A stretch of DNA of 64,000 nucleotides from Escherichia coli. GTDB taxonomy: Bacteria; Pseudomonadota; Gammaproteobacteria; Enterobacterales; Enterobacteriaceae. The first letter of the stretch is position 1, and the number at the start of each line of letters is the position of its first letter. Below are positions 13,124-56,516 of the stretch, one piece after another. Location of the stretch: NCBI RefSeq assembly GCF_003790525.1, contig NZ_CP033635.1; one strand, 5' to 3'. Below the pieces are notes generated by a model. That model did not search any database, was not told the origin of the DNA, and saw nothing but the letters and a program-made list of their open reading frames with translations. The position numbers and the translations under genes were made by a program.

Positions 13124-13313
13124 TTTTAGCGACATTATTTTGTTAGCCGGAGATGGCGTTCAGACCAGATCCGGCAACATTATCCCACGCATGGTCAGCA
13201 AACTGACATTATCTCTCCGCCCTGGCAGGCATCAGAAAATCGCTCATACTTTAATCGGTAAACAGCACCTTTAGATGCTGTTTTCGATACACAATTTCAA
13301 TCAAGGAGTCATT

Positions 13314-13792: not shown

Positions 13793-15154
13793 ATGTTTAA
13801 ACCGGAACTCCTTTCCCCGGCGGGAACGCTGAAAAATATGCGTTACGCTTTCGCTTATGGCGCAGATGCTGTTTATGCGGGCCAGCCGCGTTACTCCCTG
13901 CGTGTGCGCAACAACGAATTCAACCACGAAAATCTTCAGCTCGGCATCAATGAAGCCCACGCGCTGGGGAAAAAGTTTTATGTCGTGGTCAACATTGCAC
14001 CGCACAACGCCAAGCTGAAAACCTTTATCCGTGACCTGAAACCGGTGGTGGAAATGGGGCCGGATGCGCTGATTATGTCCGATCCAGGGCTGATTATGCT
14101 GGTGCGTGAGCACTTCCCTGAAATGCCGATCCACCTCTCGGTGCAGGCTAACGCCGTAAACTGGGCGACGGTGAAATTCTGGCAGCAAATGGGCCTGACC
14201 CGCGTGATCCTCTCTCGCGAGCTGTCGCTGGAAGAGATTGAAGAGATCCGCAATCAGGTGCCGGATATGGAGATCGAGATCTTCGTTCACGGCGCACTGT
14301 GCATGGCCTACTCCGGTCGCTGCCTGCTCTCTGGCTATATCAACAAGCGCGATCCGAACCAGGGTACCTGCACCAACGCCTGCCGCTGGGAGTACAACGT
14401 CCAGGAAGGGAAAGAAGATGACGTTGGCAACATCGTACACAAGTACGAGCCGATTCCGGTGCAAAATGTTGAGCCGACGCTGGGTATCGGCGCGCCAACC
14501 GACAAAGTGTTTATGATCGAAGAAGCCCAGCGTCCGGGCGAGTATATGACCGCGTTTGAAGATGAGCACGGCACTTACATCATGAACTCGAAAGATCTGC
14601 GCGCCATCGCCCATGTAGAACGCCTGACCAAAATGGGCGTGCATTCGCTGAAAATCGAAGGCCGTACTAAATCTTTCTACTATTGCGCACGCACCGCACA
14701 GGTTTACCGTAAAGCTATCGATGACGCCGCTGCGGGCAAACCGTTCGATACCAGCCTGCTGGAAACTCTGGAAGGTCTGGCGCATCGTGGCTATACCGAA
14801 GGTTTCCTGCGTCGTCATACTCACGACGATTATCAGAACTACGAATACGGTTATTCAGTTTCTGACCGCCAGCAGTTTGTTGGTGAGTTTACCGGTGAGC
14901 GCAAGGGGGACCTCGCGGCGGTAGCGGTGAAAAATAAATTCTCCGTTGGCGACAGCCTTGAGCTGATGACGCCGCAAGGCAACATTAACTTTACCCTTGA
15001 GCACATGGAAAACGCCAAAGGTGAAGCGATGCCGGTCGCACCAGGCGATGGTTATACTGTGTGGCTCCCGGTCCCGCAGGATCTTGAGCTCAATTACGCT
15101 CTGCTGATGCGTAATTTCTCCGGGGAAACCACGCGTAACCCACACGGTAAGTGA
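13793..15154 (+). CDS. yegQ: Peptidase U32 family protein YegQ/TrhP (453 aa)
   Basis: 453-aa ORF, U32-type sequence with Cys-rich C-terminal half; position after yegP. Confidence 0.9.
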   Translation: MFKPELLSPAGTLKNMRYAFAYGADAVYAGQPRYSLRVRNNEFNHENLQLGINEAHALGKKFYVVVNIAPHNAKLKTFIRDLKPVVEMGPDALIMSDPGLIMLVREHFPEMPIHLSVQANAVNWATVKFWQQMGLTRVILSRELSLEEIEEIRNQVPDMEIEIFVHGALCMAYSGRCLLSGYINKRDPNQGTCTNACRWEYNVQEGKEDDVGNIVHKYEPIPVQNVEPTLGIGAPTDKVFMIEEAQRPGEYMTAFEDEHGTYIMNSKDLRAIAHVERLTKMGVHSLKIEGRTKSFYYCARTAQVYRKAIDDAAAGKPFDTSLLETLEGLAHRGYTEGFLRRHTHDDYQNYEYGYSVSDRQQFVGEFTGERKGDLAAVAVKNKFSVGDSLELMTPQGNINFTLEHMENAKGEAMPVAPGDGYTVWLPVPQDLELNYALLMRNFSGETTRNPHGK

Positions 15155-15238
15155 TTAATTTCGATTATTTTTCCCGGATGGAAAATTCTTAGAAACCGAT
15201 CACATACAGCTGCATTTATTAAGGTTATCATCCGTTTC

Positions 15239-15325
15239 GCTGAAAAACATAACCCATAAAATGCTAGCTGTACCAGGAACCACCTCCTTAGCCTGTGTAA
15301 TCTCCCTTACACGGGCTTATTTTTT
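15239..15325 (+). ncRNA. cyaR: CyaR (RyeE) Hfq-dependent sRNA
   Basis: GCTGAAAAACATAACCCATAAAATGCTAGCTGTACCAGGAACCACCTCCTTAGCCTGTGTAATCTCCCTTACACGGGCTTATTTTTT matches the CyaR sequence as remembered; ends in a hairpin (GTGTAATCTCCCTTACAC) plus T-run; a -10-like TATCAT lies about 8 bp upstream. Confidence 0.8.
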
Positions 15326-15483
15326 ATGCATAAGCCCTATCCCTGGTCACCGTCTTCCATTGACCACATCGATAGAATCTCCCTTCATAGCACGATGCCT
15401 TTCACGTAACGGCATCGTGCTCGCACAGGTTCCGGCTAAGCACAACCAGAACGCACATATTTGACGCTTACCAAAAAATATTC

Positions 15484-15801
15484 TCACTCTCCACATTTGA
15501 ATGTCAGACGAGCGACACCATGTAATCCTACACCTTCTGTCTTCAGCTCAACTATTTGCATTTTTTTGCCCTGAGTAACACAGAAATGGGCTGCATCATT
15601 TTTTACTATATTTTCTGCACCAGATATTCTACCCCTGGCTAAAGAAGCTTCGGCTTCGGTGTAGTATTGGTTATCGAGTTTACGCTGAATATTACTTTTA
15701 TATGCAAGGCCAAATTTACCGATACTTGTCTCATCATTATGCACAGCACAACCAGACATAAGAAAAACACTAATTAATGATATAGCAGCTATTTTATTCA
15801 C
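15484..15801 (-). CDS. yegR: Small lipoprotein-like protein YegR (105 aa, probable GTG start)
   Basis: ORF 15484-15906 trimmed to GTG giving (M)NKIAAISLISVFLMSGCAV..., signal peptide with lipobox LMSGC. Confidence 0.7.
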   Translation of the reverse strand: MNKIAAISLISVFLMSGCAVHNDETSIGKFGLAYKSNIQRKLDNQYYTEAEASLARGRISGAENIVKNDAAHFCVTQGKKMQIVELKTEGVGLHGVARLTFKCGE

Positions 15802-16214
15802 CTCACCTTCCCCCATTAAATACCAACGACACTCTCTAGTGTTTAAGTATAATAATGGCCGATCATTATAATTGAATAGGATTATAATAAATGTTTTGTA
15901 CAACATTTCCTACATAAGTAGGAATTACAGACTCAGAGGCCCTTCCGGGTAACCCTATGGGAGCTTTAATATATTTGGAATAGTATATTGAAGATGCCAC
16001 TGTTTAGTTGAATATTAGATATTTGCTCTTTTTTCAAATTTACCGGTGGCTACCGTTAACATTCACTGCCCCCATTGCAAGCTCCTGGTGGTAACAACTG
16101 AATTACCCATGCTTGAACTGACTTTTTATCCTCCGACTTTCATCCTGTTCTGACTCCACCTTTTGTTTTCTGCTCTACACTATCTACAGACCAATCATAA
16201 AGGCACATACGATC

Positions 16215-17114
16215 ATGGCAGAATTTCCCGCCAGCTTACTGATTCTTAATGGCAAAAGTACTGACAATCTACCCTTGCGCGAAGCAATTATGCTGTTGCG
16301 TGAGGAAGGAATGACGATCCATGTGCGGGTCACCTGGGAGAAAGGTGATGCCGCACGATTTGTAGAGGAGGCCCGGAAGTTGGGCGTCGCAACGGTGATT
16401 GCTGGAGGTGGCGATGGCACCATTAATGAAGTTTCTACGGCGTTGATTCAGTGTGAGGGGGATGACATACCCGCGCTGGGAATTTTACCATTAGGAACCG
16501 CCAATGATTTTGCCACCAGCGTAGGGATTCCTGAGGCACTGGATAAGGCGCTGAAACTGGCAATTGCCGGTGACGCCATTGCGATAGATATGGCGCAGGT
16601 CAACAAACAAACCTGTTTTATTAATATGGCGACAGGCGGATTTGGGACGCGTATTACCACAGAAACGCCGGAAAAATTAAAAGCCGCGCTGGGTAGCGTC
16701 TCTTACATCATTCATGGCTTAATGCGTATGGATACTCTGCAACCGGACCGTTGTGAAATCCGCGGTGAAAACTTTCACTGGCAAGGTGACGCCCTGGTCA
16801 TTGGTATTGGTAACGGGCGTCAGGCCGGTGGCGGTCAGCAATTGTGTCCGAACGCGTTAATTAACGATGGCTTGCTGCAACTGCGCATTTTTACCGGCGA
16901 TGAAATACTTCCGGCTCTCGTATCAACCTTAAAATCTGACGAAGATAACCCGAATATTATCGAAGGCGCTTCGTCGTGGTTTGATATTCAGGCACCACAC
17001 GACATCACCTTTAATCTTGATGGCGAACCGTTGAGTGGGCAAAATTTTCATATTGAAATACTTCCGGCAGCGTTGCGTTGCCGTCTGCCACCAGATTGCC
17101 CGCTTTTACGTTAA
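16215..17114 (+). CDS. yegS: Lipid kinase YegS (diacylglycerol-kinase catalytic-domain family, 299 aa)
   Basis: 299-aa ORF with GGDGT motif ([13 protein letters not shown]). Confidence 0.9.
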
Positions 17115-17187
17115 ATAAAAGCAAGCTCAGAAGCAGGATTAGCAGACCGGCATCATCCCTGGGATCTTCTGCGCTCACCCTTTTTTG

Positions 17188-17841
17188 TTACGCAGCTACG
17201 GCTAACGCTGCCAGTAATTCATTCATCGATAAATATCTTGCACTCGCCGCATTAAAGCAGGTTTGTTGGGCATCTTCTGATACCACAATGGTGTTTATTC
17301 CTGCCGCCTGTGCTGCCTGAAAACCACTCACGCTGTCCTCTATAACCAAACAATCTGCAGCAGACAGTTGCAATTCTCGCAGTGCAGAAAGATAAACTGC
17401 CGGATGGGGTTTCCCATGCTTTTCGTCATCAGCACTACAAATCACCGAAAAATAATGCTGAATATTGAGTTTTGTCAGTACAGCATCGATCACCTGGTAA
17501 GATGAAGAGGTTGCCAGCGCCAGTTGATAGCCACTCCGGCGCAAAAAAAATAACACGTCCTGAACGCCTGGCATCGCTTCGCCCGTCCCGGCAATCAACG
17601 TAGTGATCAGGCGGCGAATCTCACTTTCCAACAGTGCGGGTTCAATGTGTAAATGACAATATTCACACCAGGTTTGGGCAATCTCATCCAGCCTTTTACC
17701 TTTAGTCAGTCTTATACACTCTTCGTCACTGACACATGCGCCCCACCTTGCCAGTGCTCCCTTTTGTGCCTCACGCCATAACCCTTCCGAATCAATGATG
17801 ACGCCGTCCATATCAAAAATGACTGCTTTACAATTAAACAT
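17188..17841 (-). CDS. HAD-superfamily sugar-phosphate phosphatase (217 aa)
   Basis: ORF 17188-17886 trimmed to ATG at 17841 preceded by GAGGAA; HAD motif I FDMDGVIIDS; lies immediately downstream of atlT. Confidence 0.8.
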   Translation of the reverse strand: MFNCKAVIFDMDGVIIDSEGLWREAQKGALARWGACVSDEECIRLTKGKRLDEIAQTWCEYCHLHIEPALLESEIRRLITTLIAGTGEAMPGVQDVLFFLRRSGYQLALATSSSYQVIDAVLTKLNIQHYFSVICSADDEKHGKPHPAVYLSALRELQLSAADCLVIEDSVSGFQAAQAAGINTIVVSEDAQQTCFNAASARYLSMNELLAALAVAA

Positions 17842-17885
17842 TGTTCCTCGCAATAAAGCCTGGCACCACACCAGGCTTGTCGTCA

Positions 17886-19163
17886 TCAGGAAATGGTGGC
17901 GGTCTTCCCTTCACACACTTGCTGATTTGAGAATCCCGGTTGTTCGACGCGAATAAACGGGCAAATAATAAACGCTATCACATACAGGGTGGTGTAAGCG
18001 ATAACCACACCAATAGTACTGAAATAAGGCAGAAGTACCACGGCGATTGCCGGAGCAAGGAAGTTGGACAACCCGGCTGAAAGGTTATAAACCGAAATAG
18101 CTGCTCCTTTATGTTTCGGTTCCAGTGCCGGGAAAACGGCTGCCATCGGTACGAATGCAGCAACAAAGATCCCCAGTGCCACCGCAGGTATCAGCGCCAT
18201 AGCAAAGTTATGACCGAAATGTTGCGGCATGTAGTAGAACGCCAGGCTTGAAAGCGCCATTCCCACGCAACCAAACCAGCGAACAACTTTCATCCAGCCC
18301 ATTTTCTCTGCCAGCACGCCCCAGAATACGTTAGAGAAGATGGTGGTAAAGAAGAAGACTGCCCAGACCTGCAACCACTCAGAGGTGGTAAAGCCCAGCT
18401 CATCAACAAACATCATCGGCATAATTACGGCGAATCCGAATAAAGATAAGGTGTTGATAATGCGAACAATACTGGAAAGCAAAATATTGCGGTTGGTATA
18501 AAGCAAAGTCACCGCACGGCCCAGTTCGCTAAACTTCTCTTTTGTGGTTAGGTTTTGCATATGGCGTGGTGTTTCTACTTTGCGCATAGAAATTAACGCA
18601 ACAGCGCCACCAACCCCACAGAAGGCCAGCGCCAGCCATAATGTTCCCATTTCGCCAATAAGCGGAATGGTAAAACTGGGGATGTAGCTGCCGAATACGC
18701 CGATACCAATAGAGTAAACTGCCCAGAACCAGCCCAGAGCAGCACTGGTGCTGTCACTGCGTACGTTATGGACAATCGCCACAATAAAGGCGTAGAGGAA
18801 CAGCGGATAGGCTAGGCCACGAATACCATAAAACAGCAGGATTAACCCATAGTTCGCCTGCCCCAGACCAAAGACCAGAAACAGCACGTGAAATACGCAC
18901 CACAGCACAAAGCCGATAAACATGGTTTTTTGTGGCGTAATAATTTCGGCAACTACGCCGGAAACCCAGGCGGAAAGCGCTGCCGCCAGGCCATAGAGCG
19001 TAAAGGCAAAGGAGGCTTCTGCAGGCGTGAAACCCAGTGCTTTAATGTAATGCGACAGGAATGCCAGTTCAAAACCGTCTCCGGTCATAAAGATGGCAAT
19101 GGCAATATATCCCCACACCAGATTTAAGGGTAATCCCAGCCATTGTTTATTTGTTAACGACAT
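17886..19163 (-). CDS. atlT: MFS pentitol transporter, D-arabitol operon (425 aa)
   Basis: ORF trimmed to MSLTNKQWLGL...; about 85% identical by eye to the second MFS protein at 26892-28166. Confidence 0.85.
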   Translation of the reverse strand: MSLTNKQWLGLPLNLVWGYIAIAIFMTGDGFELAFLSHYIKALGFTPAEASFAFTLYGLAAALSAWVSGVVAEIITPQKTMFIGFVLWCVFHVLFLVFGLGQANYGLILLFYGIRGLAYPLFLYAFIVAIVHNVRSDSTSAALGWFWAVYSIGIGVFGSYIPSFTIPLIGEMGTLWLALAFCGVGGAVALISMRKVETPRHMQNLTTKEKFSELGRAVTLLYTNRNILLSSIVRIINTLSLFGFAVIMPMMFVDELGFTTSEWLQVWAVFFFTTIFSNVFWGVLAEKMGWMKVVRWFGCVGMALSSLAFYYMPQHFGHNFAMALIPAVALGIFVAAFVPMAAVFPALEPKHKGAAISVYNLSAGLSNFLAPAIAVVLLPYFSTIGVVIAYTTLYVIAFIICPFIRVEQPGFSNQQVCEGKTATIS

Positions 19164-19231
19164 AGTGACCTCGTTTGTAGGATACAAAACGCCGCTCCGG
19201 TGCAAACACCGGAGGGCATTTGTGACAGATG

Positions 19232-20695
19232 TTATTGATTGCGATAGTTCAGGTCGTTGTGATACAGCGCAGTAAACTGCTGATATCGTTGCATCAGCGC
19301 ATTATGACGTTCAGGATCGCTGCGCCAGGTTTTGAAGATTTCAGGTTTTTCACACACTGCCGCCAGTGGTTTTCCCGCAGCAAGACAGGCCAGACGCGCG
19401 GCTCCCAGCGCCCCACCCGTTTCACCGCCTTTATGCGTCACCACTGGCATATCGAGAATATCGGCCAGTAACTGCGCCCAGAATGGACTTCTCGCCCCCC
19501 CACCTACCAGCGAGCATTGCTCAATTGCCGTACCGCTTTCTTGCAGGACTCGCAGCCCATCGGCAATACCAAAGCTGACGCCTTCCAGCACTGCATATCC
19601 CATTAGCGCACGCTGACTGGAGTGTGTCAGCGCCCAGAACAATCCCCGGGCATGAGGATCGTTATGTGGCGTACGTTCACCAGAAAGATACGGGAGGAAC
19701 ATCGGTGCACTGGCTTTGTCTGCATCAGAAAGTTGGGCAATCTCTTCCAGTAACTCTGTTTCCGTTACCCCCACCAGACGGCAGAACCATTGCAGACAAC
19801 TGGCGGCACTGAGCATTACACTCATCTGGTGCCATAAATTCGGTAGTACGTGACAGAAAGCATGGACTGCTGATTGCGGCGCAGGACGATAGGCATCAGT
19901 CACTACAAACAACACCCCGGAAGTTCCCAAAGAAATAAACGCATCTCCGGGAGAAACGGCCCCCACACCAATTGCGCTCACGGCGTTATCGCCACCGCCA
20001 CCAGCAACTACAACCGAAGATGTCAGCCCCCAACGGCTGGCAACTTCAGGGGAAAGAGTGGCAGAAACGTCACAACCTTCCACCAGTTCCGGCATATTCG
20101 CCCGTGTCAGGCCACATTTTTCCAGCAACGAATCTGACCAGTCGCGTTTTTCCACGTCGAGCCACAACGTGCCAGCAGAATCCGACATATCGGAAATCTT
20201 TTGGCCGGTCATTTTGAAACGCAAATAGTCTTTCGGCAGTAAAACGGTGGAAATGCGCGCAAAGTGCTGCGGCTCATGGCGCCGTACCCATAGCAATTTG
20301 GGGGCGGTAAATCCAGGCATCGCCAGGTTTCCCGCTACCTGATGCAACTCTGGTGCGATCTCTTCCAGCTCCGCACACTCCTGCGCACTGCGGGTGTCGT
20401 TCCATAAAATCGCCGGACGAATCGCCTCTCCTTTTTCATCCAACAGGACGGCACCATGCATTTGACCAGAAAGGCCAATGGCTTTGATCGCCTGCCAGTG
20501 GTGACCGCATTTTTCCCGCAGGGTCGACATTAAATATTCCGTCGCTTCCCACCAGGCTTGCGGCGATTGTTCTGACCAGTGTGGATGGGGCCGCTGAATG
20601 GTCAGCGGCGCACTATGGGTGGCAACAATTTCATTGTTTTCATCAATGACCAGCGCCTTAACTTCCGATGTGCCCAGATCGATACCCAGATACAT
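19232..20695 (-). CDS. atlK: FGGY-family kinase, xylulokinase-like (487 aa)
   Basis: N-terminus MYLGIDLGTSEVKA typical of FGGY sugar kinases; AGGAGG before the ATG. Confidence 0.85.
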   Translation of the reverse strand: MYLGIDLGTSEVKALVIDENNEIVATHSAPLTIQRPHPHWSEQSPQAWWEATEYLMSTLREKCGHHWQAIKAIGLSGQMHGAVLLDEKGEAIRPAILWNDTRSAQECAELEEIAPELHQVAGNLAMPGFTAPKLLWVRRHEPQHFARISTVLLPKDYLRFKMTGQKISDMSDSAGTLWLDVEKRDWSDSLLEKCGLTRANMPELVEGCDVSATLSPEVASRWGLTSSVVVAGGGGDNAVSAIGVGAVSPGDAFISLGTSGVLFVVTDAYRPAPQSAVHAFCHVLPNLWHQMSVMLSAASCLQWFCRLVGVTETELLEEIAQLSDADKASAPMFLPYLSGERTPHNDPHARGLFWALTHSSQRALMGYAVLEGVSFGIADGLRVLQESGTAIEQCSLVGGGARSPFWAQLLADILDMPVVTHKGGETGGALGAARLACLAAGKPLAAVCEKPEIFKTWRSDPERHNALMQRYQQFTALYHNDLNYRNQ

Positions 20696-20708
20696 AACCG
20701 CCTCCTGG

Positions 20709-22076
20709 TTAGTTAATTAACGCGTAGACGTCAGCGATTTTTTCGCGCAACAACGCGGCAAAATCTTCACGTTCGGTTAAATCGCCAAACAGCGCTTTAT
20801 CACTGGCATAAACAGCGACGGGATCGGCAGACTGGAACATTGCATGGACAGCTGGTGCATCAAGGATGCCATCCTGATATTCATAGGGCAGTTTGCCGTG
20901 ATGCCATTGCTCCATGAATACGTAAAACAGTGCAGGTAACATGGCGGTGGCATTCGGGCGAACGCCTCGCTGGTAGCACTCTCGCAGTGTGGGGGCAATC
21001 ATCGCCGGAATTTTCGAGAAACCATCCGCAGCGACGCGTTGGTTGGTGTCCTGAATATGTGGATTGGTAAAACGCTTGAGTACAACATCACGGTAGGTTG
21101 GCAAATCGATACCGTTATCGCCCAAGCAAGGAATGACATCTTCCGTCACGTAGCGGTCGGCAATCTGATAGATAAAATCGGTCATTGTGCTTTCGTGGAT
21201 ATATTTTTGACCGATTAACGTACCTGCCCAGGCGATGCAACTGTGTGAAGAGTTAAGAATGCGAATCTTCGCCTCTTCATAGGGGATTACCGACGCCACC
21301 AGTTCGACACCGACCTTCTCCAGTGCCGGACGGACATCACGGAAATTATCTTCCACGACCCACTGGATAAAGGTTTCGCCCATTACCGGCGCTTTATCGG
21401 CAATACCCGTTTGAGCCTTGATCCGTGCCGGAAGTTCTGCTGCCGGACGAGGCGTAATGCGGTCAACCATGGTATTCGGGCAAGTGGTATTTGTACTCAG
21501 CCAGTCGATGACATCCTGTTTGCCAGTTAGCTGGAGAAACTCAACCAGGCCATCATGGAAACGTTCACCATTATGGCGCACGTTATCGCAATTCAGCAGG
21601 GTTAGTGGTCCGGCGTTATTTGCCATACGTGCTTCGAGGATACGGGTAATAACACCGTAAATTGTTTTGCATCCCCCTTTAAGATCTGCCGCTAAATCAG
21701 GATTGTTAACTTCCAGTTTGTGACTGGTATTCAGGTAGTACCCGCCTTCGGTGACGGTGAAAGCAATCACTTTTGTCTTCGGATCTGCCCCTTCAGCAAT
21801 CAGCGGTTGTAAATCTGCCTGCCACGGTATCAACTTCTGAATTGAGGTGATCTCTTCATATTCGCTTACCCCTTCCGGGCTGACGGTTTCCAGCACATAG
21901 CGACCTTTCTGTGCACTGAGTGCCTGTACGACATGTTCAGCATCATTACGAATATTGCCCGCAGCAATGCTCCAGCGTTTATCGCCCATCACCTGCAAAC
22001 GGTGTAGATACCACGCCTGATGTGCGCGATGAAAAGAACCTAACCCGATGTGCAGCCATGTAAATTGTTCGTTCAT
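20709..22076 (-). CDS. atlD: Mannitol-dehydrogenase-family polyol dehydrogenase, D-arabitol 4-dehydrogenase-like (455 aa)
   Basis: ORF 20709-22121 trimmed to [21 protein letters not shown] (Rossmann N-terminus); the start could instead be 15 codons upstream. Confidence 0.8.
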
Positions 22077-22288
22077 TGTTTCGTTCTCCATTGACGTTAT
22101 GGCTGAACTGTAATCGAACATTTGAGTTAATTAAGAGCGTTAGATCACAAAAGAACAATTGACCAAAAAAATTACAAATGACCAAATCAAAGCAATAAAC
22201 TTGCCTCGCGGTAAAGCTATGGCCAAAATGACGCTAATCAGTTGCGGGATTTTCACGATTCCGCACGCCACTTTTGAGGTAGGGAAAC

Positions 22289-23230
22289 GTGAACAAAGAA
22301 GATGACATCAGGCTCGATCAAAAAGTACGGGCGGCATGGATGTACTACATTGCCGGACTTAATCAGAGTGAAATCGCAAGTCAGTTAGGTACTTCACGGC
22401 CAGTGGTTCAACGCCTGATAGCAGCAGCGAAAGACGAAGGGATTGTGTCGATTGGATTGCATCATCCGGTTGCCAACTGTCTCGATTATGCCCAACTGTT
22501 AAAGGAAAAGTACCAATTAACCGACTGCAATATTATGCCGGTTTACAGTATTGAAAGTACGCTCGACAGCGTGACATTTGGCTGTTATCAACTGATGGCG
22601 CGTTACTTACAGGGTGACAAACCGACCATCGTTGGTATTGGTTCTGGCTTAACGTTGAAGAAAACCATTAAACGTATCGATTTTGATAGTCAGAATACCC
22701 GCTGTGTGGCGCTGATTAGCGCCATGAATGAACACGGGCAATGTAACTATTACGACGACGTACCGCTGCTTTTGGCGAGAAAAATTCAGGGAAAATATTA
22801 CCAGTGGCCAGCTCCACGCTATGCTCAGTCCCGCGAAGAGTACCAAATGTGGTCAACCAATCGATTGTTCCGCAACGTCTCTACCGTAGCGCGTGACTCT
22901 GATGTTATTTTCGTGGGTATTGGTGCTTTAGGTCGTCAAAGCCCTATTTTCAAAGATGGCTTTATTGATGAGCAGCAACTGGAAGAGTTAACAGCACGCG
23001 GAGGCGTTGGTGAAATCCTCGGACGCTTTATTGATGCTGAAGGCAATGTTGTGGAAAGCCAGATCAACCAGATGATCACCAGCCATGATATCCGCGAAAG
23101 CAACTGCCCACGTATCGCAGCTGCCTGTGGTGAGGATAAACGTCCGGCGATCCTCGCAGCATTAAAAGGTGGGTGGATCAACGGTCTGGTCACCGATGAA
23201 CACACCGCACGCTGGTTGCTGACACGTTAA
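22289..23230 (+). CDS. atlR: SorC/DeoR-type sugar-binding transcriptional regulator (313 aa)
   Basis: N-terminal HTH (LNQSEIASQLGTSRPVVQRL) plus sugar-binding domain; divergent from atlDKT. Symbol assigned by adjacency only. Confidence 0.75.
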   Translation: MNKEDDIRLDQKVRAAWMYYIAGLNQSEIASQLGTSRPVVQRLIAAAKDEGIVSIGLHHPVANCLDYAQLLKEKYQLTDCNIMPVYSIESTLDSVTFGCYQLMARYLQGDKPTIVGIGSGLTLKKTIKRIDFDSQNTRCVALISAMNEHGQCNYYDDVPLLLARKIQGKYYQWPAPRYAQSREEYQMWSTNRLFRNVSTVARDSDVIFVGIGALGRQSPIFKDGFIDEQQLEELTARGGVGEILGRFIDAEGNVVESQINQMITSHDIRESNCPRIAAACGEDKRPAILAALKGGWINGLVTDEHTARWLLTR

Positions 23231-23232
23231 TC

Positions 23233-24264
23233 TCAGCTGACAACATTCAGGCTCGGAATGAGTTGTGGCGGTATCTCAATGCGACGCAGGGTGGTATCGC
23301 CAGAATCCACAATTTCAAACACTTTTTCGAGCATGGCGGGTACATCCTGACGAACCATATCGATATCGTGCCCGAGCAGAGAAACAAAAGGATCCCAGTC
23401 AAAACACCCCATTGGCGGTTGATTGGCTCCCGTCTGCCCGGTTTGCGCCAGCCAGCGAACCACCCCTTCAAGAGAGATTGTCGAGTTGACGAATAACCCG
23501 TGAAGCGATACTGCAGAGCTTTGGAAGACCTCTTTCAGTAATCCCTCTACGCGAGCAGAAGAGTAGCCGGTAACCAGTTTATGTTCATCCGGTACGGTTA
23601 TCCCCAAAGCCTGATGGGCATCGACAAAACCACATAAACGTTCAGCAGTATTGTTATCGCTTATACGTCCACCGACAAAAGTCAAAGGTGCCAGCTTGCC
23701 ATAGCGTTTCTGGCTGTTGGCTAAAATTCTTTCCGTCAATAATTTCGCCCCCATATAGTTATCAGAAATGATCGACGGCGCCAGTGTTCCCGGCAGATCC
23801 AGATTCAGTGTCGGTACGCCCGCTTGCTGGCACATTTGGGCTATTTTATCCGGTTGAGTCGCTCCGGTAGCAATGACCCAATCCACCTGCCAGGAGAGCA
23901 TGGCGCGAGCAGCCTCAATTTCCAGTTCTGGCTGTCGCCGCGTACAGGTGATGATTGGCAGTAATCCTCTGGCACGCGCCATCTCTTCAAATTTTTCGGC
24001 AATCGATCCAAAGTATCGGTTGTCATATTTCGGCACAATCATGCCAATAACGTTGGATTTTTTACTGCGCAGTAAACTTGCCTGCCGATTAATGGCATAT
24101 CCCTGCTCTTCCGCAATACGGGTGACCTTCTCAGCCAGCTTTGCGCTGATGCGTCGCTTTTTCCAGTTGCCATTCAAAATAGCGCTTACCGCACTGGCAG
24201 AAACGCCGGTTAATTCTGCCAGGTCGTAAATGGTCGTTTTCTTCGTTTTCTCAACGCGTGTCAC
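23233..24264 (-). CDS. rtlR: LacI-family transcriptional repressor (343 aa)
   Basis: LacI-type HTH (TIYDLAELTGVSASAVS) plus periplasmic-binding-like domain; divergent from rtlDKT. Symbol assigned by adjacency only. Confidence 0.75.
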   Translation of the reverse strand: MTRVEKTKKTTIYDLAELTGVSASAVSAILNGNWKKRRISAKLAEKVTRIAEEQGYAINRQASLLRSKKSNVIGMIVPKYDNRYFGSIAEKFEEMARARGLLPIITCTRRQPELEIEAARAMLSWQVDWVIATGATQPDKIAQMCQQAGVPTLNLDLPGTLAPSIISDNYMGAKLLTERILANSQKRYGKLAPLTFVGGRISDNNTAERLCGFVDAHQALGITVPDEHKLVTGYSSARVEGLLKEVFQSSAVSLHGLFVNSTISLEGVVRWLAQTGQTGANQPPMGCFDWDPFVSLLGHDIDMVRQDVPAMLEKVFEIVDSGDTTLRRIEIPPQLIPSLNVVS

Positions 24265-24422
24265 AAATTTGCCTCTTCATTTTGAATGTCTCTTGCTGAG
24301 AATTTAAGCAAGTGCTAGATCTGCTTCATCGATTGAGCAGTTTGCTTCACACGGCAGCTAAATTCCCGTTCAGTGCGTGCAAGCAAACAGAGACTATAAA
24401 TTCGCCCTGGTAAAAGGATTAT

Positions 24423-25175
24423 ATGATGAATCACTCTGTGCCCTCTATGAATACTCCCCTTAATGGCAAAGTTGCAGCTATCACTGGCGCTGCGTCAGGT
24501 ATTGGCCTGCAATGTGCAAAAACGCTGCTCGATGCAGGAGCAAAGGTAGTATTGATTGACCGGGAAGGCGACAAACTGCACAAGATTGTCGCTGAGTTAG
24601 GCGAAAACGCGTACGCGCTGCAACTCGATCTCTTCAATAATCAGCAAGTCGATAACATGCTGGCGGACATTATCGAACTGGCGGGTGGGCTGGATATTTT
24701 TCATGCCAATGCAGGCGCTTATATTGGCGGCCCAGTGGCTGAAGGTGATCCAGATGTCTGGGATCGTGTGTTAAATCTGAATATAAATGCGGCGTTTCGC
24801 TGTGTCCGTGCAGTCCTGCCGCATATGATTGCGCAGAGGTCGGGCGATATAATTTTTACCAGTTCCATCGCGGGCGTCGTTCCGGTTATCTGGGAACCGA
24901 TCTACACCGCGTCCAAATTTGCCGTTCAGGCATTCGTACACACTACCCGCCGCCAGGTTTCTCAATATGGCGTGCGTGTGGGTGCGGTGCTGCCAGGACC
25001 AGTAGTCACTGCCCTGCTTGATGACTGGCCAAAAGCCAAAATGGAAGAAGCCCTGGCAAATGGTAGCCTGATGCAACCGATTGAAGTGGCGGAATCAGTA
25101 TTGTTTATGGTGACCCGCTCGAAAAATGTCACCGTGCGAGATTTAGTGATCCTGCCTGGCAGTGTCGATCTGTAA
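24423..25175 (+). CDS. rtlD: Short-chain dehydrogenase/reductase, ribitol 2-dehydrogenase-like (about 249 aa)
   Basis: SDR motifs TGAASGIG and YTASK; the start may be the second ATG at 24426. Confidence 0.85.
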
Positions 25176-25185
25176 GGGCGCAATC

Positions 25186-26790
25186 ATGACAATAACCAAA
25201 ACCGTTATTGGTGTTGATGTGGGATCAGGCAGTGTCCGCGCCGGGATTTTTGATCTCAACGGATCTCTGCTATCCCATGCCACAGAAAAAATCACGACTA
25301 CGCGGCGCAGCGGAAGCCGCGTGGAACAGTCCAGCCAGGAGATCTGGCAGGCGGTCTGTTCATGTATTCGTAATGCGCTCACTCTGGCAGACGTTTGTGC
25401 ACAAAGTGTGGCAGGCATCGGTTTTGATGCCACCTGTTCTCTGGTGGTACTGGATAAAAACGGTGATCCATTGCCTGTCAGCCCGGAAGGAGATGCAAAG
25501 CAAAATATCATTGTGTGGATGGATCACCGCGCCACCGAACAAGCAGAGCGAATCAATGCCACTCACCATCCGGTGCTGAACTACGTCGGTGGTAAAATTT
25601 CGCCTGAAATGGAAACACCGAAAATTCTCTGGCTGAAAGAAAATATGCCAGAGATCTACGAACGTGCCGGACAATTTTTCGATCTGGCCGATTTTCTGAC
25701 CTGGCGGGCTACCGGTGATTTAGCGCGTTCAGTATGCACTGTTACCTGTAAATGGACGTGGCTGGCACATGAAAATCGCTGGGATCCAGATTATTTCCGC
25801 ACCATTGGCCTTGCAGAGTTAGCGGATGAAGATTTTATTCGCATTGGTCATCATATTGTTTCTCCCGGAACACCTTGTGGAAATGGTTTAACAGCACAAG
25901 CCGCGGCAGAGATGGGATTACTCCCCGGCACACCTGTCGCTGTAGGGTTAATTGATGCTCACGCTGGTGGCATCGGTACGGTTGGCGTAGAAGGTGGAGC
26001 GCTGAACAATCTCGCGTATGTTTTCGGCACTTCTTCATGCACCATGGCATCTACCACTTCTCCCTCGTTTGTACCGGGTGTCTGGGGGCCGTATTACAGT
26101 GCGATGGTTCCAGGTCTGTGGTTAGTTGAAGGCGGGCAAAGTGCTGCGGGAGCAGCTATTGACCAGCTACTTGATTTCCATCCGGCTGTTGAAGAAGCTC
26201 GCGAAATGGCACAACGTGTGAATCAGCCCCTCCCCGTCTGGCTTGCTGATCGAATCCTCGAAAAAACGGCGCAACCATCAGATGCTGTCGCCCTGGCGAA
26301 AGGGCTACACGTGGTGCCGGAATTTCTCGGAAATCGCGCCCCCTTCGCAGATCCTCATGCCAGAGCGGTAATTTGTGGCCTGGGTATGGAGCGAGATCTG
26401 GATAATTTACTCGCCTTGTATATCGCTGGATTATGCGGAATTGGTTATGGTCTGCGCCAAATTCTCGACGCTCAAACAGCGCAGGGAGTAGTGAGTAAAA
26501 ATATCGTTATTAGCGGCGGTGCCGGGCAGCATCCACTGGTACGACAAATTCTGGCAGATACCTGCGGTATTCCGGTCATTACCACGCAATGCTGCGAACC
26601 GGTTTTATTAGGCTCGGCCATTCTTGGTGCTGTCGCCGGAAATATTGCACCTTCTGTTGGCGAAGCGATGCAACAATTCACCCATGTGGATAAATATTAT
26701 TATCCGCAAGAACGCTATCAATCTCTTCATCATCGTCGATATGAGGCCTATAAGCAGTTGCAGCATACTGCAAAATTACTCAGAGACTAA
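25186..26790 (+). CDS. rtlK: FGGY-family kinase, D-ribulokinase-like (534 aa)
   Basis: ORF 25162-26790 trimmed to ATG at 25186 (MTITKTVIGVDVGSGSVRAG...), 10 bp after the rtlD stop. Confidence 0.85.
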   Translation: MTITKTVIGVDVGSGSVRAGIFDLNGSLLSHATEKITTTRRSGSRVEQSSQEIWQAVCSCIRNALTLADVCAQSVAGIGFDATCSLVVLDKNGDPLPVSPEGDAKQNIIVWMDHRATEQAERINATHHPVLNYVGGKISPEMETPKILWLKENMPEIYERAGQFFDLADFLTWRATGDLARSVCTVTCKWTWLAHENRWDPDYFRTIGLAELADEDFIRIGHHIVSPGTPCGNGLTAQAAAEMGLLPGTPVAVGLIDAHAGGIGTVGVEGGALNNLAYVFGTSSCTMASTTSPSFVPGVWGPYYSAMVPGLWLVEGGQSAAGAAIDQLLDFHPAVEEAREMAQRVNQPLPVWLADRILEKTAQPSDAVALAKGLHVVPEFLGNRAPFADPHARAVICGLGMERDLDNLLALYIAGLCGIGYGLRQILDAQTAQGVVSKNIVISGGAGQHPLVRQILADTCGIPVITTQCCEPVLLGSAILGAVAGNIAPSVGEAMQQFTHVDKYYYPQERYQSLHHRRYEAYKQLQHTAKLLRD

Positions 26791-26891
26791 TTAACCAGCC
26801 GCCTGACGCTGTTTTCAGGCAATCACTAATAACGACTCACTCCGGTAATATCCCGGAGTGCATTCATCTGCACCCTAAAAACGAGGTTTAT

Positions 26892-28166
26892 ATGTCCAGA
26901 AATAATAAACAGTGGTTGGGTTTGCCACTGCATCTGATATGGGGATATATCGCCATCGCAGTATTTATGACTGGTGATGGTTTCGAACTCGCATTCTTAT
27001 CGCACTATATTAAATCGTTAGGCTTCACACCTGCGGAAGCCTCTTTTGCCTTTACGCTCTACGGCCTGGCGGCTGCCCTTTCCGCCTGGGTTTCTGGGGT
27101 AGTAGCGGAAATCATCACGCCGCAAAAAACCATGCTGATTGGTTTTGTCCTATGGTGCGTATTCCATGTTCTGTTTCTGGTCTTTGGATTAGGACAGGCA
27201 AACTATGGGTTAATCCTGCTGTTTTACGGGATTCGTGGTTTAGCGTATCCGCTATTTCTCTACTCATTTATCGTCGTTATTATTCATAACGTGCGTAGCG
27301 AAAATTCCAGTTCTGCTCTGGGTTGGTACTGGGCGGTATATTCAGTAGGGATCGGTGTTGCTGGCAGTTATATTCCCAGTTTTACGATACCGATTATGGG
27401 TGAAATGGGAACCTTATGGCTGGCACTGGCGTTCTGCTTTGCTGGCGGTGTCATTGCCATGATCTCCTTGCGTCATGTTAAAACGCCTGGACATATGCAT
27501 AATTTAACTCCCCGTGAGAAGTTTGCAGAATTAAGTCGGGCAGTAACTTTACTTTATACCAACCGCAATATTTTTCTCTCCAGTATTGTGCGCATTATAA
27601 ATACCTTATCGTTATTCGGTTTTGCGGTCATTATGCCAATGATGTTTGTGGATGAACTGGGATTCACCACCTCTGAATGGTTGCAGGTCTGGGCGGCATT
27701 TTTCTTTACCACTATTTTCTCTAATATTTTTTGGGGGATTGTGGCAGAAAAAATGGGCTGGATGCGTGTTATTCGCTGGTTTGGTTGCCTCGGGATGGCA
27801 GCATCAAGTTTAGCGTTTTACTACATGCCGCAATACTTTGGTCACAACTACTGGATGGCAATGATTCCGGCGATTGCTCTGGGAACTTTTGTTGCTGCAT
27901 TTGTGCCGATGGCCGCTGTCTTCCCGGCACTGGAACCAAAACACAAAGGTGCTGCAATCTCGGTTTACAACCTCTCTGCGGGTATGTCTAACTTCCTGGC
28001 TCCGGCAATTGCCGTGGTGTTATTACCGTGGTTTAGCACTATCGGTGTGGTCATTGCCTATACAGCATTGTATCTATTGGCCTTTGTCCTTTGCGCATTC
28101 ATTCGCGTTGAGCAGCCAGGATTCAGTTCTGCGCCAGTGACTGAGAAGGCATTGAATATCTCCTGA
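26892..28166 (+). CDS. rtlT: MFS pentitol transporter, ribitol operon (424 aa)
   Basis: Paralog of atlT (MSRNNKQWLGLPLHLIWGYIAIAVF...). Confidence 0.85.
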   Translation: MSRNNKQWLGLPLHLIWGYIAIAVFMTGDGFELAFLSHYIKSLGFTPAEASFAFTLYGLAAALSAWVSGVVAEIITPQKTMLIGFVLWCVFHVLFLVFGLGQANYGLILLFYGIRGLAYPLFLYSFIVVIIHNVRSENSSSALGWYWAVYSVGIGVAGSYIPSFTIPIMGEMGTLWLALAFCFAGGVIAMISLRHVKTPGHMHNLTPREKFAELSRAVTLLYTNRNIFLSSIVRIINTLSLFGFAVIMPMMFVDELGFTTSEWLQVWAAFFFTTIFSNIFWGIVAEKMGWMRVIRWFGCLGMAASSLAFYYMPQYFGHNYWMAMIPAIALGTFVAAFVPMAAVFPALEPKHKGAAISVYNLSAGMSNFLAPAIAVVLLPWFSTIGVVIAYTALYLLAFVLCAFIRVEQPGFSSAPVTEKALNIS

Positions 28167-28187
28167 AAAACGAAACGCATCAGGCAC

Positions 28188-28215
28188 TCATCCTCTCCCT
28201 CATGGGAGAGGATGA
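28188..28215. terminator. Perfect 12-bp stem / 4-nt loop hairpin between convergent rtlT and fbaB
   Basis: TCATCCTCTCCC-TCAT-GGGAGAGGATGA followed by TTT on the plus strand. Confidence 0.5.
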
Positions 28216-28222
28216 TTTCACA

Positions 28223-29275
28223 TCAGGCAATAGTGACTTTGTTATCGAGATAAACGTCCTGCACGGCGTTAATCAGTTTCACGCCGTCAGCCATCGATTT
28301 CTTAAATGCTTTCCGCCCCAGAATCAGCCCCATTCCGCCTGCGCGTTTGTTGATAACCGCAGTACGCACTGCATCGCTGAGGTCAGTTTCACCGCCCGCA
28401 GCACCGCCGGAGTTTATCAACCCAGCCCGACCCATATAGCAGTTAGCTAACTGATAACGCACCAGATCAATCGGGTTTTCGCTGGTCAATTTGCTGTAAA
28501 CACGATCGTCGGTGTAACCGTAATTAATTGCTTTATAGCCGCCGTTATTTTCCGCCATTTTTTGTTTGACGATATCTGCACCGATGGTTGCCGCCAGATG
28601 GTTTGCCTGACCGGTCAGGTCGGCGGAAACATGGTAATCAACGCCATCTTTCTTAAAGGCGGAGTTACGCAAATAGGCCCACAGCACTGTCACCATACCC
28701 AGCTCGTGCGCACGTTCAAAAGCCGCAGAAATTTCTTCAATCTGGCGACGTGACTCTTCCGAGCCAAAATAGATAGTCGCACCAACCGCAACCGCGCCCA
28801 TGTTGAACGCCTGCTCCACGCTGGCATACAGCGTTTGATCGTAGGTATTCGGGTAACTTAGCGTCTCGTTGTGATTAAGTTTGACGAGGAATGGAATGCG
28901 ATGCGCATAACGCCGCGATACCGACGCCAGCACGCCGTAAGTTGACGCCACACAGTTACAGCCCGCTTCGATCGCCAGTTCAACAATGTTTTTCGGGTCA
29001 AAGTAGAGCGGGTTAGCAGCAAATGAAGCTCCGGCAGAGTGCTCAACGCCCTGGTCAACCGGCAGAATAGAAAGATATCCTGTGCCAGCCAGACGCCCGG
29101 TGTTGTACAACGTCTGCATATTACGTAACACCGCTGGCGGGCGATTATTGTCAATCATTACGCGGTCTACGTAGTCATGTCCGGGGAGATAAAGCTGGTC
29201 AGAAGGAATTGTCATACAACGGTGCTGTAAAAGGTTGTCGGCGTCTTTGCCAAGCAACTGCGCAATATCTGTCAT
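28223..29275 (-). CDS. fbaB: Class I fructose-bisphosphate aldolase FbaB (350 aa)
   Basis: ORF 28223-29347 trimmed to [20 protein letters not shown]..., the FbaB N-terminus as remembered. Confidence 0.9.
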
Positions 29276-29531
29276 TACTATGCTCCCGTAAATTCCGATT
29301 GGATATCGGCTATGGATTGTCCTGGCCCGCCTTTTGCGGGCAATCATAATCCTGGTCGTTACGGGCGAGTTTTTCCATCTTTTGGATGTTTTTTCAGCGT
29401 TTTCTGTTGGCTCGATTCATCAGAAAAAATGTTAGCGCGGTCAAGTTTTCACCGCAAAGGTATTTAAAAGGTATTATTAAGTGGTATTGTCATCGCGTAC
29501 CTTACATTACCTGTCATGAAGGAATTAAAAG

Positions 29532-30809
29532 ATGAAAACAACAGCAAAGCTGTCGTTCATGATGTTTGTTGAATGGTTTATCTGGGGCGCGTGGTTTGTG
29601 CCATTGTGGTTGTGGTTAAGTAAAAGCGGTTTTAGTGCCGGAGAAATTGGCTGGTCGTATGCCTGTACCGCCATTGCGGCGATCCTGTCGCCAATTCTGG
29701 TTGGCTCCATCACTGACCGCTTTTTCTCGGCGCAAAAAGTGCTGGCGGTATTGATGTTCGCAGGCGCGCTGCTGATGTATTTCGCTGCGCAACAGACCAC
29801 TTTTGCCGGGTTCTTTCCGTTACTGCTGGCTTACTCTCTAACCTATATGCCGACCATTGCGCTGACTAACAGCATCGCTTTTGCCAACGTGCCGGATGTG
29901 GAGCGTGATTTCCCGCGCATTCGTGTGATGGGCACTATCGGCTGGATTGCCTCCGGTCTGGCATGTGGTTTCTTGCCGCAAATACTGGGGTATGCCGATA
30001 TCTCACCGACTAACATCCCGCTGCTGATTACCGCCGGAAGTTCTGCTCTGCTCGGTGTGTTTGCGTTTTTCCTGCCCGACACGCCACCAAAAAGCACCGG
30101 CAAAATGGATATTAAAGTCATGCTCGGCCTGGATGCGCTGATCCTGCTGCGCGATAAAAACTTCCTCGTCTTTTTCTTCTGTTCATTCCTGTTTGCGATG
30201 CCACTGGCGTTCTATTACATCTTTGCCAACGGTTATCTGACCGAAGTCGGCATGAAAAATGCCACCGGCTGGATGACGCTCGGCCAGTTCTCTGAAATAT
30301 TCTTTATGCTGGCATTACCGTTTTTCACTAAACGCTTTGGTATCAAAAAGGTATTATTGCTTGGTCTGGTCACCGCTGCGATCCGCTATGGCTTCTTTAT
30401 TTACGGTAGTGCGGATGAATATTTCACCTACGCGTTACTGTTCCTCGGTATTTTGCTTCACGGCGTAAGTTACGATTTTTACTACGTTACCGCTTACATC
30501 TATGTCGATAAAAAAGCCCCCGTGCATATGCGTACCGCCGCGCAGGGGCTGATCACGCTCTGCTGCCAGGGCTTCGGCAGTTTGCTCGGCTATCGTCTTG
30601 GCGGTGTGATGATGGAAAAGATGTTCGCTTATCAGGAACCGGTAAACGGACTGACTTTCAACTGGTCCGGGATGTGGACTTTTGGCGCGGTGATGATTGC
30701 CATTATCGCCGTGCTGTTCATGATTTTTTTCCGCGAATCCGACAACGAAATTACGGCTATCAAGGTCGATGATCGCGATATTGCGTTGACACAAGGGGAA
30801 GTTAAATGA
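29532..30809 (+). CDS. yegT: Nucleoside:H+ symporter-family MFS transporter YegT (425 aa)
   Basis: 12-TM ORF resembling NupG/XapB-type nucleoside permeases; position after fbaB. Confidence 0.85.
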   Translation: MKTTAKLSFMMFVEWFIWGAWFVPLWLWLSKSGFSAGEIGWSYACTAIAAILSPILVGSITDRFFSAQKVLAVLMFAGALLMYFAAQQTTFAGFFPLLLAYSLTYMPTIALTNSIAFANVPDVERDFPRIRVMGTIGWIASGLACGFLPQILGYADISPTNIPLLITAGSSALLGVFAFFLPDTPPKSTGKMDIKVMLGLDALILLRDKNFLVFFFCSFLFAMPLAFYYIFANGYLTEVGMKNATGWMTLGQFSEIFFMLALPFFTKRFGIKKVLLLGLVTAAIRYGFFIYGSADEYFTYALLFLGILLHGVSYDFYYVTAYIYVDKKAPVHMRTAAQGLITLCCQGFGSLLGYRLGGVMMEKMFAYQEPVNGLTFNWSGMWTFGAVMIAIIAVLFMIFFRESDNEITAIKVDDRDIALTQGEVK

Positions 30810-56348: not shown

Positions 56349-56516
56349 TATACTCTAAATAATTCAAATTGGTCCGATCCGGCGCAACGTCCCAATGGCC
56401 TGGATTATAAATCTCATTATCTTAATTGCAACGGGGTCCAGCCGTGGTTATAATTCGTTCGTTGGAACACGATGTTGCACAGGCTGTGGTGTTAGGCCTG
56501 AAAATAGTAAATAAAA

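Follow-up and report, generated by a model that had tools for sequence, protein, structure and literature searches.

An E. coli C-Type Ribitol and D-Arabitol (rtl-atl) Locus in the yegS–fbaB Interval of an Escherichia coli Genome

Results

Gene Content and Boundaries of the Locus

The window analyzed here is a 64-kb stretch of Escherichia coli DNA. At positions 17188–28166, between the core genes yegS and fbaB, it carries a pentitol cluster of nine genes, all of which have intact reading frames. On the left, homology to K-12 stops at the stop codon of yegS (lipid kinase; 16215–17114, plus strand), which converges on the first gene of the cluster, a HAD-family gene, across a spacer (17115–17187) without K-12 homology that is also found in the O55:H7 allele described below. 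On the right, K-12 homology is back at 28222, adjoining fbaB (class I fructose-bisphosphate aldolase; 28223–29275, minus strand). The variable segment is 17115–28221 (11.1 kb), and both breakpoints of K-12 similarity coincide with the stops of the flanking genes. The GC content inside the island was 0.45–0.54, which showed no contrast with the flanks. Gene coordinates were checked against the RefSeq annotation of a strain 100% identical across window positions 16000–29500; the annotated starts of atlD, rtlK, atlT, and the HAD gene lie downstream of the starts of the longest open reading frames.

A preliminary description of this DNA had proposed two divergent polyol operons between yegS and fbaB, and the open reading frames were found where it placed them, in agreement with RefSeq. 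It had expected the replacement junctions near 17115–17190 and 28167–28222, and alignment to K-12 put them at 17114/17115 and 28221/28222. The gene families that it named were borne out by NCBIfam cut-offs, by solved ribitol 2-dehydrogenase structures, and by comparison with Klebsiella pneumoniae. The curated NCBIfam cut-offs were passed by DalD, XylB, the pentulose kinase, and both RbtT/DalT transporters.

D-Arabitol Genes

The D-arabitol side (atl, or dal in Klebsiella) lies on the minus strand. Its first gene, atlD/dalD (20709–22076), encodes a 455-aa D-arabinitol 4-dehydrogenase of the mannitol-dehydrogenase family, which scored 755.7 bits against the equivalog model NF043014 (cut-off 600). 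It is followed by atlK/dalK (19232–20695), a D-xylulokinase of 487 aa (TIGR01312, 636.3 bits; cut-off 380.25), and by atlT/dalT (17886–19163), a D-arabitol MFS transporter of 425 aa (TIGR00897, 513.9 bits; cut-off 375). The last gene on this side (17188–17841) encodes a 217-aa HAD-IA sugar-phosphatase-like protein, whose best family, HxpB, was matched under its cut-off. A HAD gene occupies the equivalent position in K. pneumoniae, Leclercia, and Citrobacter koseri. The spacer that separates atlT from the HAD gene contains a minus-strand hairpin (17852–17879; z −2.6), with a 9-bp stem followed by UUUAUU, which is a possible partial terminator.

Ribitol Genes

The ribitol side (rtl, or rbt in Klebsiella) lies on the plus strand. 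The 249-aa product of rtlD/rbtD (24426–25175), a ribitol 2-dehydrogenase of the SDR family, matched PDB entries 9x6o and 9x6l, both titled "Ribitol 2-dehydrogenase", over its full length (E 1.6e-145) and showed 86% identity with its K. pneumoniae counterpart; in NCBIfam it had generic SDR matches only. Directly downstream is rtlK/rbtK (25186–26790), a D-ribulokinase of the FGGY pentulose kinase family (534 aa; TIGR01315, 919.7 bits; cut-off 408.7) with 72.5% identity to the K. pneumoniae gene at the matching position. The side ends with rtlT/rbtT (26892–28166), a ribitol MFS transporter of 424 aa (TIGR00897, 514.7 bits; cut-off 375). The gap that separates rtlT from the convergent fbaB holds a hairpin with a perfect 12-bp stem (28188–28215; −27.6 kcal/mol, z −6.65), likely a bidirectional terminator.

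Regulators and Control Regions

Two regulator genes, both assigned by family matches, occupy the middle of the cluster: atlR/dalR, of the SorC family (313 aa; 22289–23230, plus strand), and rtlR/rbtR, of the LacI family (343 aa; 23233–24264, minus strand). They lie tail to tail, and since the TAA of atlR is at 23228–23230 and the TCA (complement of TGA) of rtlR is at 23233–23235, their stops are 2 bp apart, just as the preliminary description had read them. The SorC-type regulator was paired with atl and the LacI-type regulator with rtl on the basis of co-occurrence: the SorC gene accompanies atl in atl-only loci, as in Enterobacter asburiae, which has atl and a SorC regulator only, and in O127:H6 the LacI gene is decaying alongside rtl.

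Each regulator gene is transcribed away from a dehydrogenase gene across a divergent control region. The atlD/atlR spacer (22077–22288) contains blocks that were invariant in seven sequences, including GATCACAAAAGA (22143–22154), AAATTACAAATGACCA (22169–22184), and CTTGCC; from their conservation, operator, CRP, or promoter roles might tentatively be proposed for them. In the rtlR/rtlD spacer (24265–24425), the near-palindrome GCTTCATCGATTGAGCA (24323–24339) was invariant in six sequences, is conserved in Klebsiella, and is a candidate RtlR operator. A scan for sigma-70 consensus promoters returned no site in either control region, which suggests that the rtl and atl promoters are weak or activator-dependent; overall hits were fewer than in shuffles.

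Paralogous Transporters and the Inverted Repeat

A long inverted repeat (1,256 nt, 78%) spans the cluster, with arms at 17931–19186 and 26869–28124. Each arm consists of transporter sequence with a 23-nt leader, atlT on the left and rtlT on the right; the repeat is two paralogous transporter genes and not a pair of transposon ends. AtlT and RtlT share 84–85% amino-acid identity and sit at the outer operon ends in inverted orientation. The transporters do not group by orthology at the distance of Klebsiella, which could reflect gene conversion or saturation.

Link and Reiner are said to have reported in 1982 inverted repeats of about 1.4 kb around the E. coli C genes, which fed an early mobile-element reading. 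A composite-transposon-like element bounded by long inverted repeats would account for a repeat near both island ends and for a patchy presence in E. coli (5.7% of genomes), and horizontal acquisition of the genes is stated in PMC6805351. Yet the two arms, complementary at only 78%, consist of intact transporter coding sequences, each above its family cut-off, and the repeat is not terminal on the left, where the variable segment runs on past the arm to take in the HAD gene. We looked for a transposase, an integrase, a tRNA gene, and a flanking direct repeat or target-site duplication and found none of them. Variation begins exactly at the yegS and fbaB stop codons, the same cluster adjoins fbaB in Klebsiella, Citrobacter, Leclercia, and Enterobacter asburiae, and none of 337 places found was on a plasmid. 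With coding repeat arms, a conserved fbaB site, and absent mobility genes, the transposon identity of the island is largely refuted, and we regard it as barely credible.

Frequency and a Second Allele in E. coli

In the set of 5,426 complete genomes of E. coli, 308 (5.7%) carried the island. Its rtlT–fbaB junction was present in 307, and with rtlT directly beside fbaB these lack gat at the locus. DNA of the galactitol (gat) operon, the alternative content of the interval, was found in 5,112 of the same 5,426 (about 94%). Taken as totals only, the two counts are compatible with exclusion, as 308 and 5,112 together do not exceed 5,426.

A divergent allele was observed in O55:H7 and O127:H6. On the left it joins yegS at the identical point, and from the HAD gene through rtlK its genes are ordered as in the island, with about 83% nucleotide identity to the latter compared with 98% in the flanks. 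It is without rtlT, and an intact gatR-gatDCBAZY follows. This second E. coli allele is decaying: rtlD has an internal stop in O55:H7 strain TB182A, and in O127:H6 deletions or frameshifts affect the rtl genes. At about 83% identity, the two E. coli alleles are as distant from one another as those of different species.

Predicted Physiology

We hold with high confidence that this is an rtl-atl locus of the E. coli C type, the counterpart of rbt-dal of Klebsiella, made up of two divergently arranged and separately regulated pentitol operons that form an alternative allele of the yegS–fbaB interval. Ribitol would be taken up by RtlT, oxidized to D-ribulose by RtlD acting as an NAD-dependent SDR, and phosphorylated to D-ribulose-5-phosphate by RtlK. 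D-arabitol would enter through AtlT and be converted to D-xylulose by AtlD and to D-xylulose-5-phosphate by AtlK, and both pentulose phosphates would pass into the pentose-phosphate pathway. LacI-type RtlR is predicted to repress rtlDKT, and probably rtlR too, through the conserved palindrome in the rtlR-rtlD spacer, while SorC-type AtlR would control atlDKT and the HAD gene. The HAD phosphatase may remove sugar-alcohol phosphates that arise as side products.

According to passages of PMC6805351 and PMC2806823, E. coli C grows on ribitol and D-arabitol. Given the near-identity of the two loci and this phenotype, as cited in PMC6805351, inducible growth on both pentitols is predicted for the source of the window. 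It is very improbable that the cluster is instead cryptic in the source strain or works chiefly on polyols other than these two, for example xylitol, L-arabitol, or hexitols. Such a reading is consistent with the frequent promiscuity of SDR and FGGY enzymes, with the generic NCBIfam matches of RtlD, and with the similarity of the HAD gene to hexitol-phosphate phosphatase; against it, RtlD matches solved ribitol 2-dehydrogenases with the strength given above, DalD passes an equivalog model, and all nine frames are intact and nearly identical to those of the pentitol-positive E. coli C.

Discussion

Relatives in Other Genera and Origin of the Locus

For some E. coli and for Klebsiella, PMC12307932 reports a ribitol locus that encodes D-ribulokinase, a polyol permease, and ribitol dehydrogenase, and the dal-rbt regulon of K. 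pneumoniae and K. aerogenes is attributed to Heuel et al. (1998, Microbiology 144:1631) where PMC12307932 cites it. The gene order in K. pneumoniae, HAD-dalT-dalK-dalD-dalR-rbtR-rbtD-rbtK-rbtT-fbaB, is identical to that of the island, and its SorC-type and LacI-type regulators are likewise convergent. It differs in sequence (73–75% nucleotide and 61–87% amino-acid identity), in a left flank that is not yegS, and in an rbtR-rbtD spacer that is about 90 nt longer. Other relatives were sought among GTDB species representatives by an AtlR-based contig search, which recovered five loci and missed Klebsiella; the Klebsiella locus was reached by an exact-protein look-up. Pentitol genes also lie beside fbaB in C. 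koseri, Leclercia, and Enterobacter asburiae, with yegS at the left only in C. koseri. The closest species representative found was C. koseri, with 77–80% identity, compared with 84% for the flanking fbaB–yegT genes.

These comparisons bear on whether the island was recently imported into E. coli from Klebsiella or Enterobacter. The identical gene order in K. pneumoniae, the lack of the island in most E. coli, and the horizontal acquisition described in PMC6805351 would fit such an import, but we consider it unlikely: the nucleotide identity to K. pneumoniae is too low, that to C. koseri is not above the value of its flanking genes, the GC content is unremarkable, and no donor with at least 90% identity was found among the GTDB species representatives covered by the five-locus, AtlR-based search. 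An old orthologous locus, kept or swapped by homologous recombination among close relatives, fits better. Recent transfer from Klebsiella in particular was accordingly rejected.

More tentatively, and with somewhat less than even confidence, we propose that the fbaB-adjacent interval is a "polyol slot" of long standing that the Enterobacteriaceae have in common, and not an island insertion site. If so, exclusion would reflect at least one cross-species import in which yegS and fbaB served for homologous recombination and after which the redundant partner was lost, and the conserved HAD phosphatase would be a real fourth gene of the atl side that, for example, clears toxic pentitol phosphates.

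Comparison with E. coli C and K-12

The island is 99.9% identical at the nucleotide level to that of E. coli C (CP020543), which has the same nine genes at the same yegS–fbaB site. Of the nine proteins, seven match exactly. In each of the remaining two a single residue is changed: AtlK has Ala at residue 355 where E. coli C has Gly, and RtlR has Cys at residue 211 where E. coli C has Arg. The rtl-atl locus of E. coli C was reportedly described by Reiner in 1975 and by Link and Reiner in 1983. In K-12, the same interval is filled by gatR-gatDCBAZY, a cluster that likewise serves polyol catabolism and includes a dedicated repressor. It has no sequence similarity to the island, and its chemistry is unrelated, with a PTS transporter, a galactitol-1-phosphate dehydrogenase, and a tagatose-bisphosphate aldolase.

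The classical pentitol literature is cited here through passages of later papers (PMC6805351, PMC2806823, PMC12307932, PMC6685057). PMC6805351 and PMC2806823 refer to Link and Reiner (1983) for the "genotypic exclusion" of rtl-atl and gat, with regard to E. coli C and O55:H7. The flanks shared by both alleles account for it, as homologous recombination that imports one allele removes the other. Exclusion is not absolute in the species because 27 complete genomes carry the divergent, partly decayed atl-rtl allele beside an intact gat.

The preliminary description had recognized this exclusion as in E. coli C, and the near-complete identity in the same interval upholds that reading, with the qualification made by the 27 gat-bearing genomes. 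It had also stated that gat is absent, and neither gat DNA nor a Gat protein homologue was found anywhere in the 64-kb window. Its assignment to a non-K-12 lineage agrees with a source that carries the C-type pentitol allele where K-12 holds gat. The locus identifies its source as an E. coli other than K-12, with predicted growth on ribitol and D-arabitol and a predicted galactitol-negative phenotype. What the present analysis adds is modest: the precise junctions, a count of how often the island occurs among 5,426 complete genomes, the identification of the inverted repeats as paralogous transporters, and a divergent allele that coexists with gat. The finding has little importance beyond correct annotation. 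The feature itself is already known, the classic pentitol cluster of E. coli C, correctly read but ordinary, and together with the gat operon of K-12 it makes a textbook case of two unrelated catabolic clusters acting as alleles of one chromosomal site.

Gene Organization and Protein Identities of the rtl-atl Island

An ORF map drawn over 14000-31000 of the window was set against the RefSeq annotation of E. coli TUM9803, a strain 100% identical to the window over 16000-29500. Flanked by yegS on the left (16215-17114, plus strand) and fbaB on the right (28223-29275, minus strand), the minus strand encoded a HAD hydrolase (17188-17841), the MFS transporter atlT (17886-19163), the xylulokinase atlK (19232-20695) and the D-arabinitol 4-dehydrogenase atlD (20709-22076). 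The plus strand encoded the SDR rtlD (24426-25175), the FGGY pentulose kinase rtlK (25186-26790) and a second MFS transporter, rtlT (26892-28166). Between them, the SorC-type regulator atlR (22289-23230, plus strand) and the LacI-type regulator rtlR (23233-24264, minus strand) converged with stop codons 2 bp apart. The TUM9803 annotation agreed with the layout and strands proposed in the preliminary description, regulator arrangement included, and the proposed span of 17188-28166 was exact, bounded by the stop codons of the HAD gene and rtlT. The rtl-atl island is a known, annotated polymorphism with a long history of study; its observation in place of gat was confirmed, and that interpretation was supported.

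Curated NCBIfam cut-offs were exceeded for four families: the DalD equivalog NF043014 (755.7 bits vs. a cut-off of 600), XylB (TIGR01312, 636 vs. 380), FGGY pentulose kinase (TIGR01315, 919.7 vs. 408.7) and the RbtT/DalT/CsbX transporters (~514 bits for both MFS genes vs. 375). For RtlD, NCBIfam gave generic matches only. Over its entire length the protein matched 9x6o and 9x6l, solved structures titled "Ribitol 2-dehydrogenase" (E 1.6e-145). It was 86-88% identical to Klebsiella proteins, and a Citrobacter koseri protein with the UniRef name ribitol 2-dehydrogenase shared 93% identity with it. AtlR (313 aa) was placed in the SorC family because it matched the structures of LsrR, B. subtilis DeoR and K. 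pneumoniae SorC. The HAD protein was nearest to E. coli 2-deoxyglucose-6-phosphate phosphatase (PDB 1te2), with HxpB as its best NCBIfam match, under the cut-off. The HAD gene was also far less conserved than its neighbours (61% vs. Klebsiella and 81% vs. the O55:H7 allele, with 85-94% for the other genes), and Enterobacter asburiae showed none next to atlT.

Proposed Pathway and Regulation

Building on the enzyme assignments demonstrated by these matches, we infer two routes. Ribitol would enter through RtlT, be oxidized to D-ribulose by RtlD and be phosphorylated to D-ribulose-5-phosphate by RtlK, while D-arabitol would enter through AtlT and be converted to D-xylulose by AtlD and to D-xylulose-5-phosphate by AtlK. 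Loci with atl alone kept the SorC gene, and decay of rtl was accompanied by decay of the LacI gene; because of this co-occurrence, we pair the SorC regulator with atl and the LacI regulator with rtl.

In a cross-taxon alignment of the control regions, the near-palindrome GCTTCATCGATTGAGCA (24323-24339) was invariant, with a central CG as in LacI-family operators. The atl control region held the invariant blocks GATCACAAAAGA (22143-22154) and AAATTACAAATGACCA (22169-22184). These conserved blocks are candidate operators or a CRP half-site. A consensus promoter scan gave no hit in the control regions. The rtlT-fbaB spacer contained a hairpin with a 12-bp perfect stem (28188-28215; z −6.65), likely a bidirectional terminator, and a smaller hairpin followed by UUUAUU lay between atlT and the HAD gene.

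Junctions with K-12 and Relation to gat

BLASTN of the K-12 region NC_000913 2164000-2184000 against the window located both junctions. Homology ended at 17114, the final base of the yegS stop, and returned at 28222, one base ahead of the fbaB stop, which puts the replaced segment at 17115-28221 (11,107 bp). The corresponding K-12 interval held gatR (split by IS3E) and gatDCBAZY. Neither K-12 gat DNA (BLASTN) nor any of the seven Gat proteins (tblastn) had a match anywhere in the 64-kb window, which upheld the claim that gat is absent here.

In the alignment, palindromic units such as GCCGGATGCGGTGTAAACACCTTATCCGGCATAC, presumably REP-like, bordered the gat segment on both sides in K-12 (5613-5700 and 13206-13511 of region L002); no such units were seen at the junctions of the window's island. 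In most E. coli genomes, identity to the window was just 90-95% at the 3' ends of the two flanking genes, yegS (16850-17114) and fbaB (28222-28500). This is far under the usual core-gene identity and suggests repeated recombination or hitch-hiking around the site.

The island was matched in 335 of 5,426 complete E. coli genomes (308 at >=99% identity and 27 at ~82%), and gat DNA was found in 5,112. Counted by junction, 307 genomes had rtlT|fbaB and 329 had yegS|HAD. The sum of 308 and 5,112, 5,420, is under 5,426; being totals and not per-genome counts, these figures allow for, without proving, strict mutual exclusion of gat and the C-type allele. Such "genotypic exclusion" of rtl-atl and gat goes back to Link and Reiner 1983, as cited in PMC6805351 and PMC2806823.

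The 27 divergent alleles include those of O55:H7 and O127:H6, and their gene order was read in these two regions (L003 12069-27966 and L004 12077-26707, respectively). Both ran yegS-HAD-atlTKD-atlR-rtlR-rtlD-rtlK, immediately followed by intact gatR-gatDCBAZY and then fbaB, and both were without rtlT. O55:H7 TB182A carried an internal stop in rtlD, and in O127:H6 the rtl genes were frameshifted or deleted. This order agrees with the remark that O55:H7 CB9615 has both clusters (PMC2806823). The two alleles were 83.5% identical over atlK-atlD-atlR and the fbaB-yegT flank 98%, so that the alleles stand apart to a between-species degree.

Other Features of the Window

An insertion sequence of 1,338 bp (48717-50054) ended in perfect inverted repeats of 23 bp (CATAAGCGCTAACTTAAGGGTTG). 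Its target site was duplicated over 11 bp (AGTAGTCTCCC; copies at 48706-48716 and 50055-50065), and its single ORF (48765-49883) encoded a 372-aa transposase of the IS4 family. RefSeq labels the element IS421-family; we take it to be IS186-like. The gene that it splits carries the label DUF4132 domain protein in TUM9803, where it is an internal-stop pseudogene; in other strains the annotation reads WGR domain protein. The element was missing from TUM9803, elsewhere 99.8-99.98% identical, and its site was common to only 5 of the 5,426 complete genomes.

The sRNA gene cyaR (15237-15322) ran directly into the yegR side, and this region (15237-15333) lacked PR-X, the ~600-bp remnant of a cryptic prophage (ogrK, yegZ) present in K-12. 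Three tandem SIB antitoxin RNA copies lay at 1071-1877, where the matching strain is annotated with three Ibs toxin genes; K-12 has two at this site. The OrzO-P RNA at 56468-56543 (99.9 bits), the antitoxin partner in a type I toxin-antitoxin locus (zor-orz), is not known to belong to the K-12 genome.

Origin and Comparison with Known Systems

In C. koseri, the order was yegS-HAD-atl-rtl-fbaB-yegT. One Leclercia genome had HAD-atl-rtlDK-fbaB and a second rtlDKT-fbaB, and Enterobacter asburiae had atlTKD-atlR-fbaB-yegT. Pentitol genes adjoined fbaB in L005, L007, L008, L009 and L012 (regions of C. koseri, Leclercia adecarboxylata, E. asburiae and K. pneumoniae), including variants without rtlT or with atl only; the Enterobacter cloacae contig L006 carried the cluster and ended inside it. 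In C. koseri, yegS was present to the left as well. Pentitol genes beside fbaB are therefore widespread in the family, and the position looks ancestral and not particular to E. coli C.

This breadth, a GC content without contrast to the flanks, and the lack of tRNA, integrase or transposase genes at the island favour, by inference, an old orthologous locus swapped by homologous recombination. A mobile island is disfavoured by the same lack of mobility genes. Recent import from Klebsiella is likewise disfavoured, as over atlK-atlD-atlR each E. coli allele was only ~75% identical to K. pneumoniae and ~80% to C. koseri. A scan of GTDB species representatives gave no donor nearer than C. koseri.

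A repeat finder detected inverted arms at 17931-19186 and 26869-28124 (1,256 nt, 78% complementary), which correspond to both transporter genes plus a 23 nt leader. Around the genes of E. coli C, Link and Reiner (Nature 1982) reportedly described inverted repeats of ~1.4 kb and weighed a transposon-like origin; Heuel and colleagues are said to have later put these repeats down to dalT and rbtT. The window sequence supports the paralogue explanation. AtlT (17886-19163) and RtlT (26892-28166) did not sort by orthology when set against DalT and RbtT of Klebsiella: aa identity was 83-87% in all four cross-comparisons. Saturation, or gene conversion between these inverted paralogues, may account for this.

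The preliminary comparison with E. coli C-type strains was borne out by the chromosome of E. coli C (CP020543), the classical pentitol-positive strain. Its island was 99.9% identical to that of the window and 7/9 proteins were identical, the differences being AtlK residue 355 and RtlR residue 211. A K. pneumoniae contig reached via the RbtD protein showed the same order as the window, HAD-dalT-dalK-dalD-dalR-rbtR-rbtD-rbtK-rbtT and then fbaB, at 73% nucleotide identity and with aa identities from 61% (HAD) up to 87%. A Klebsiella-like grouping of D-ribulokinase with a polyol permease and ribitol dehydrogenase has also been described for a clade of Escherichia strains (PMC12307932).
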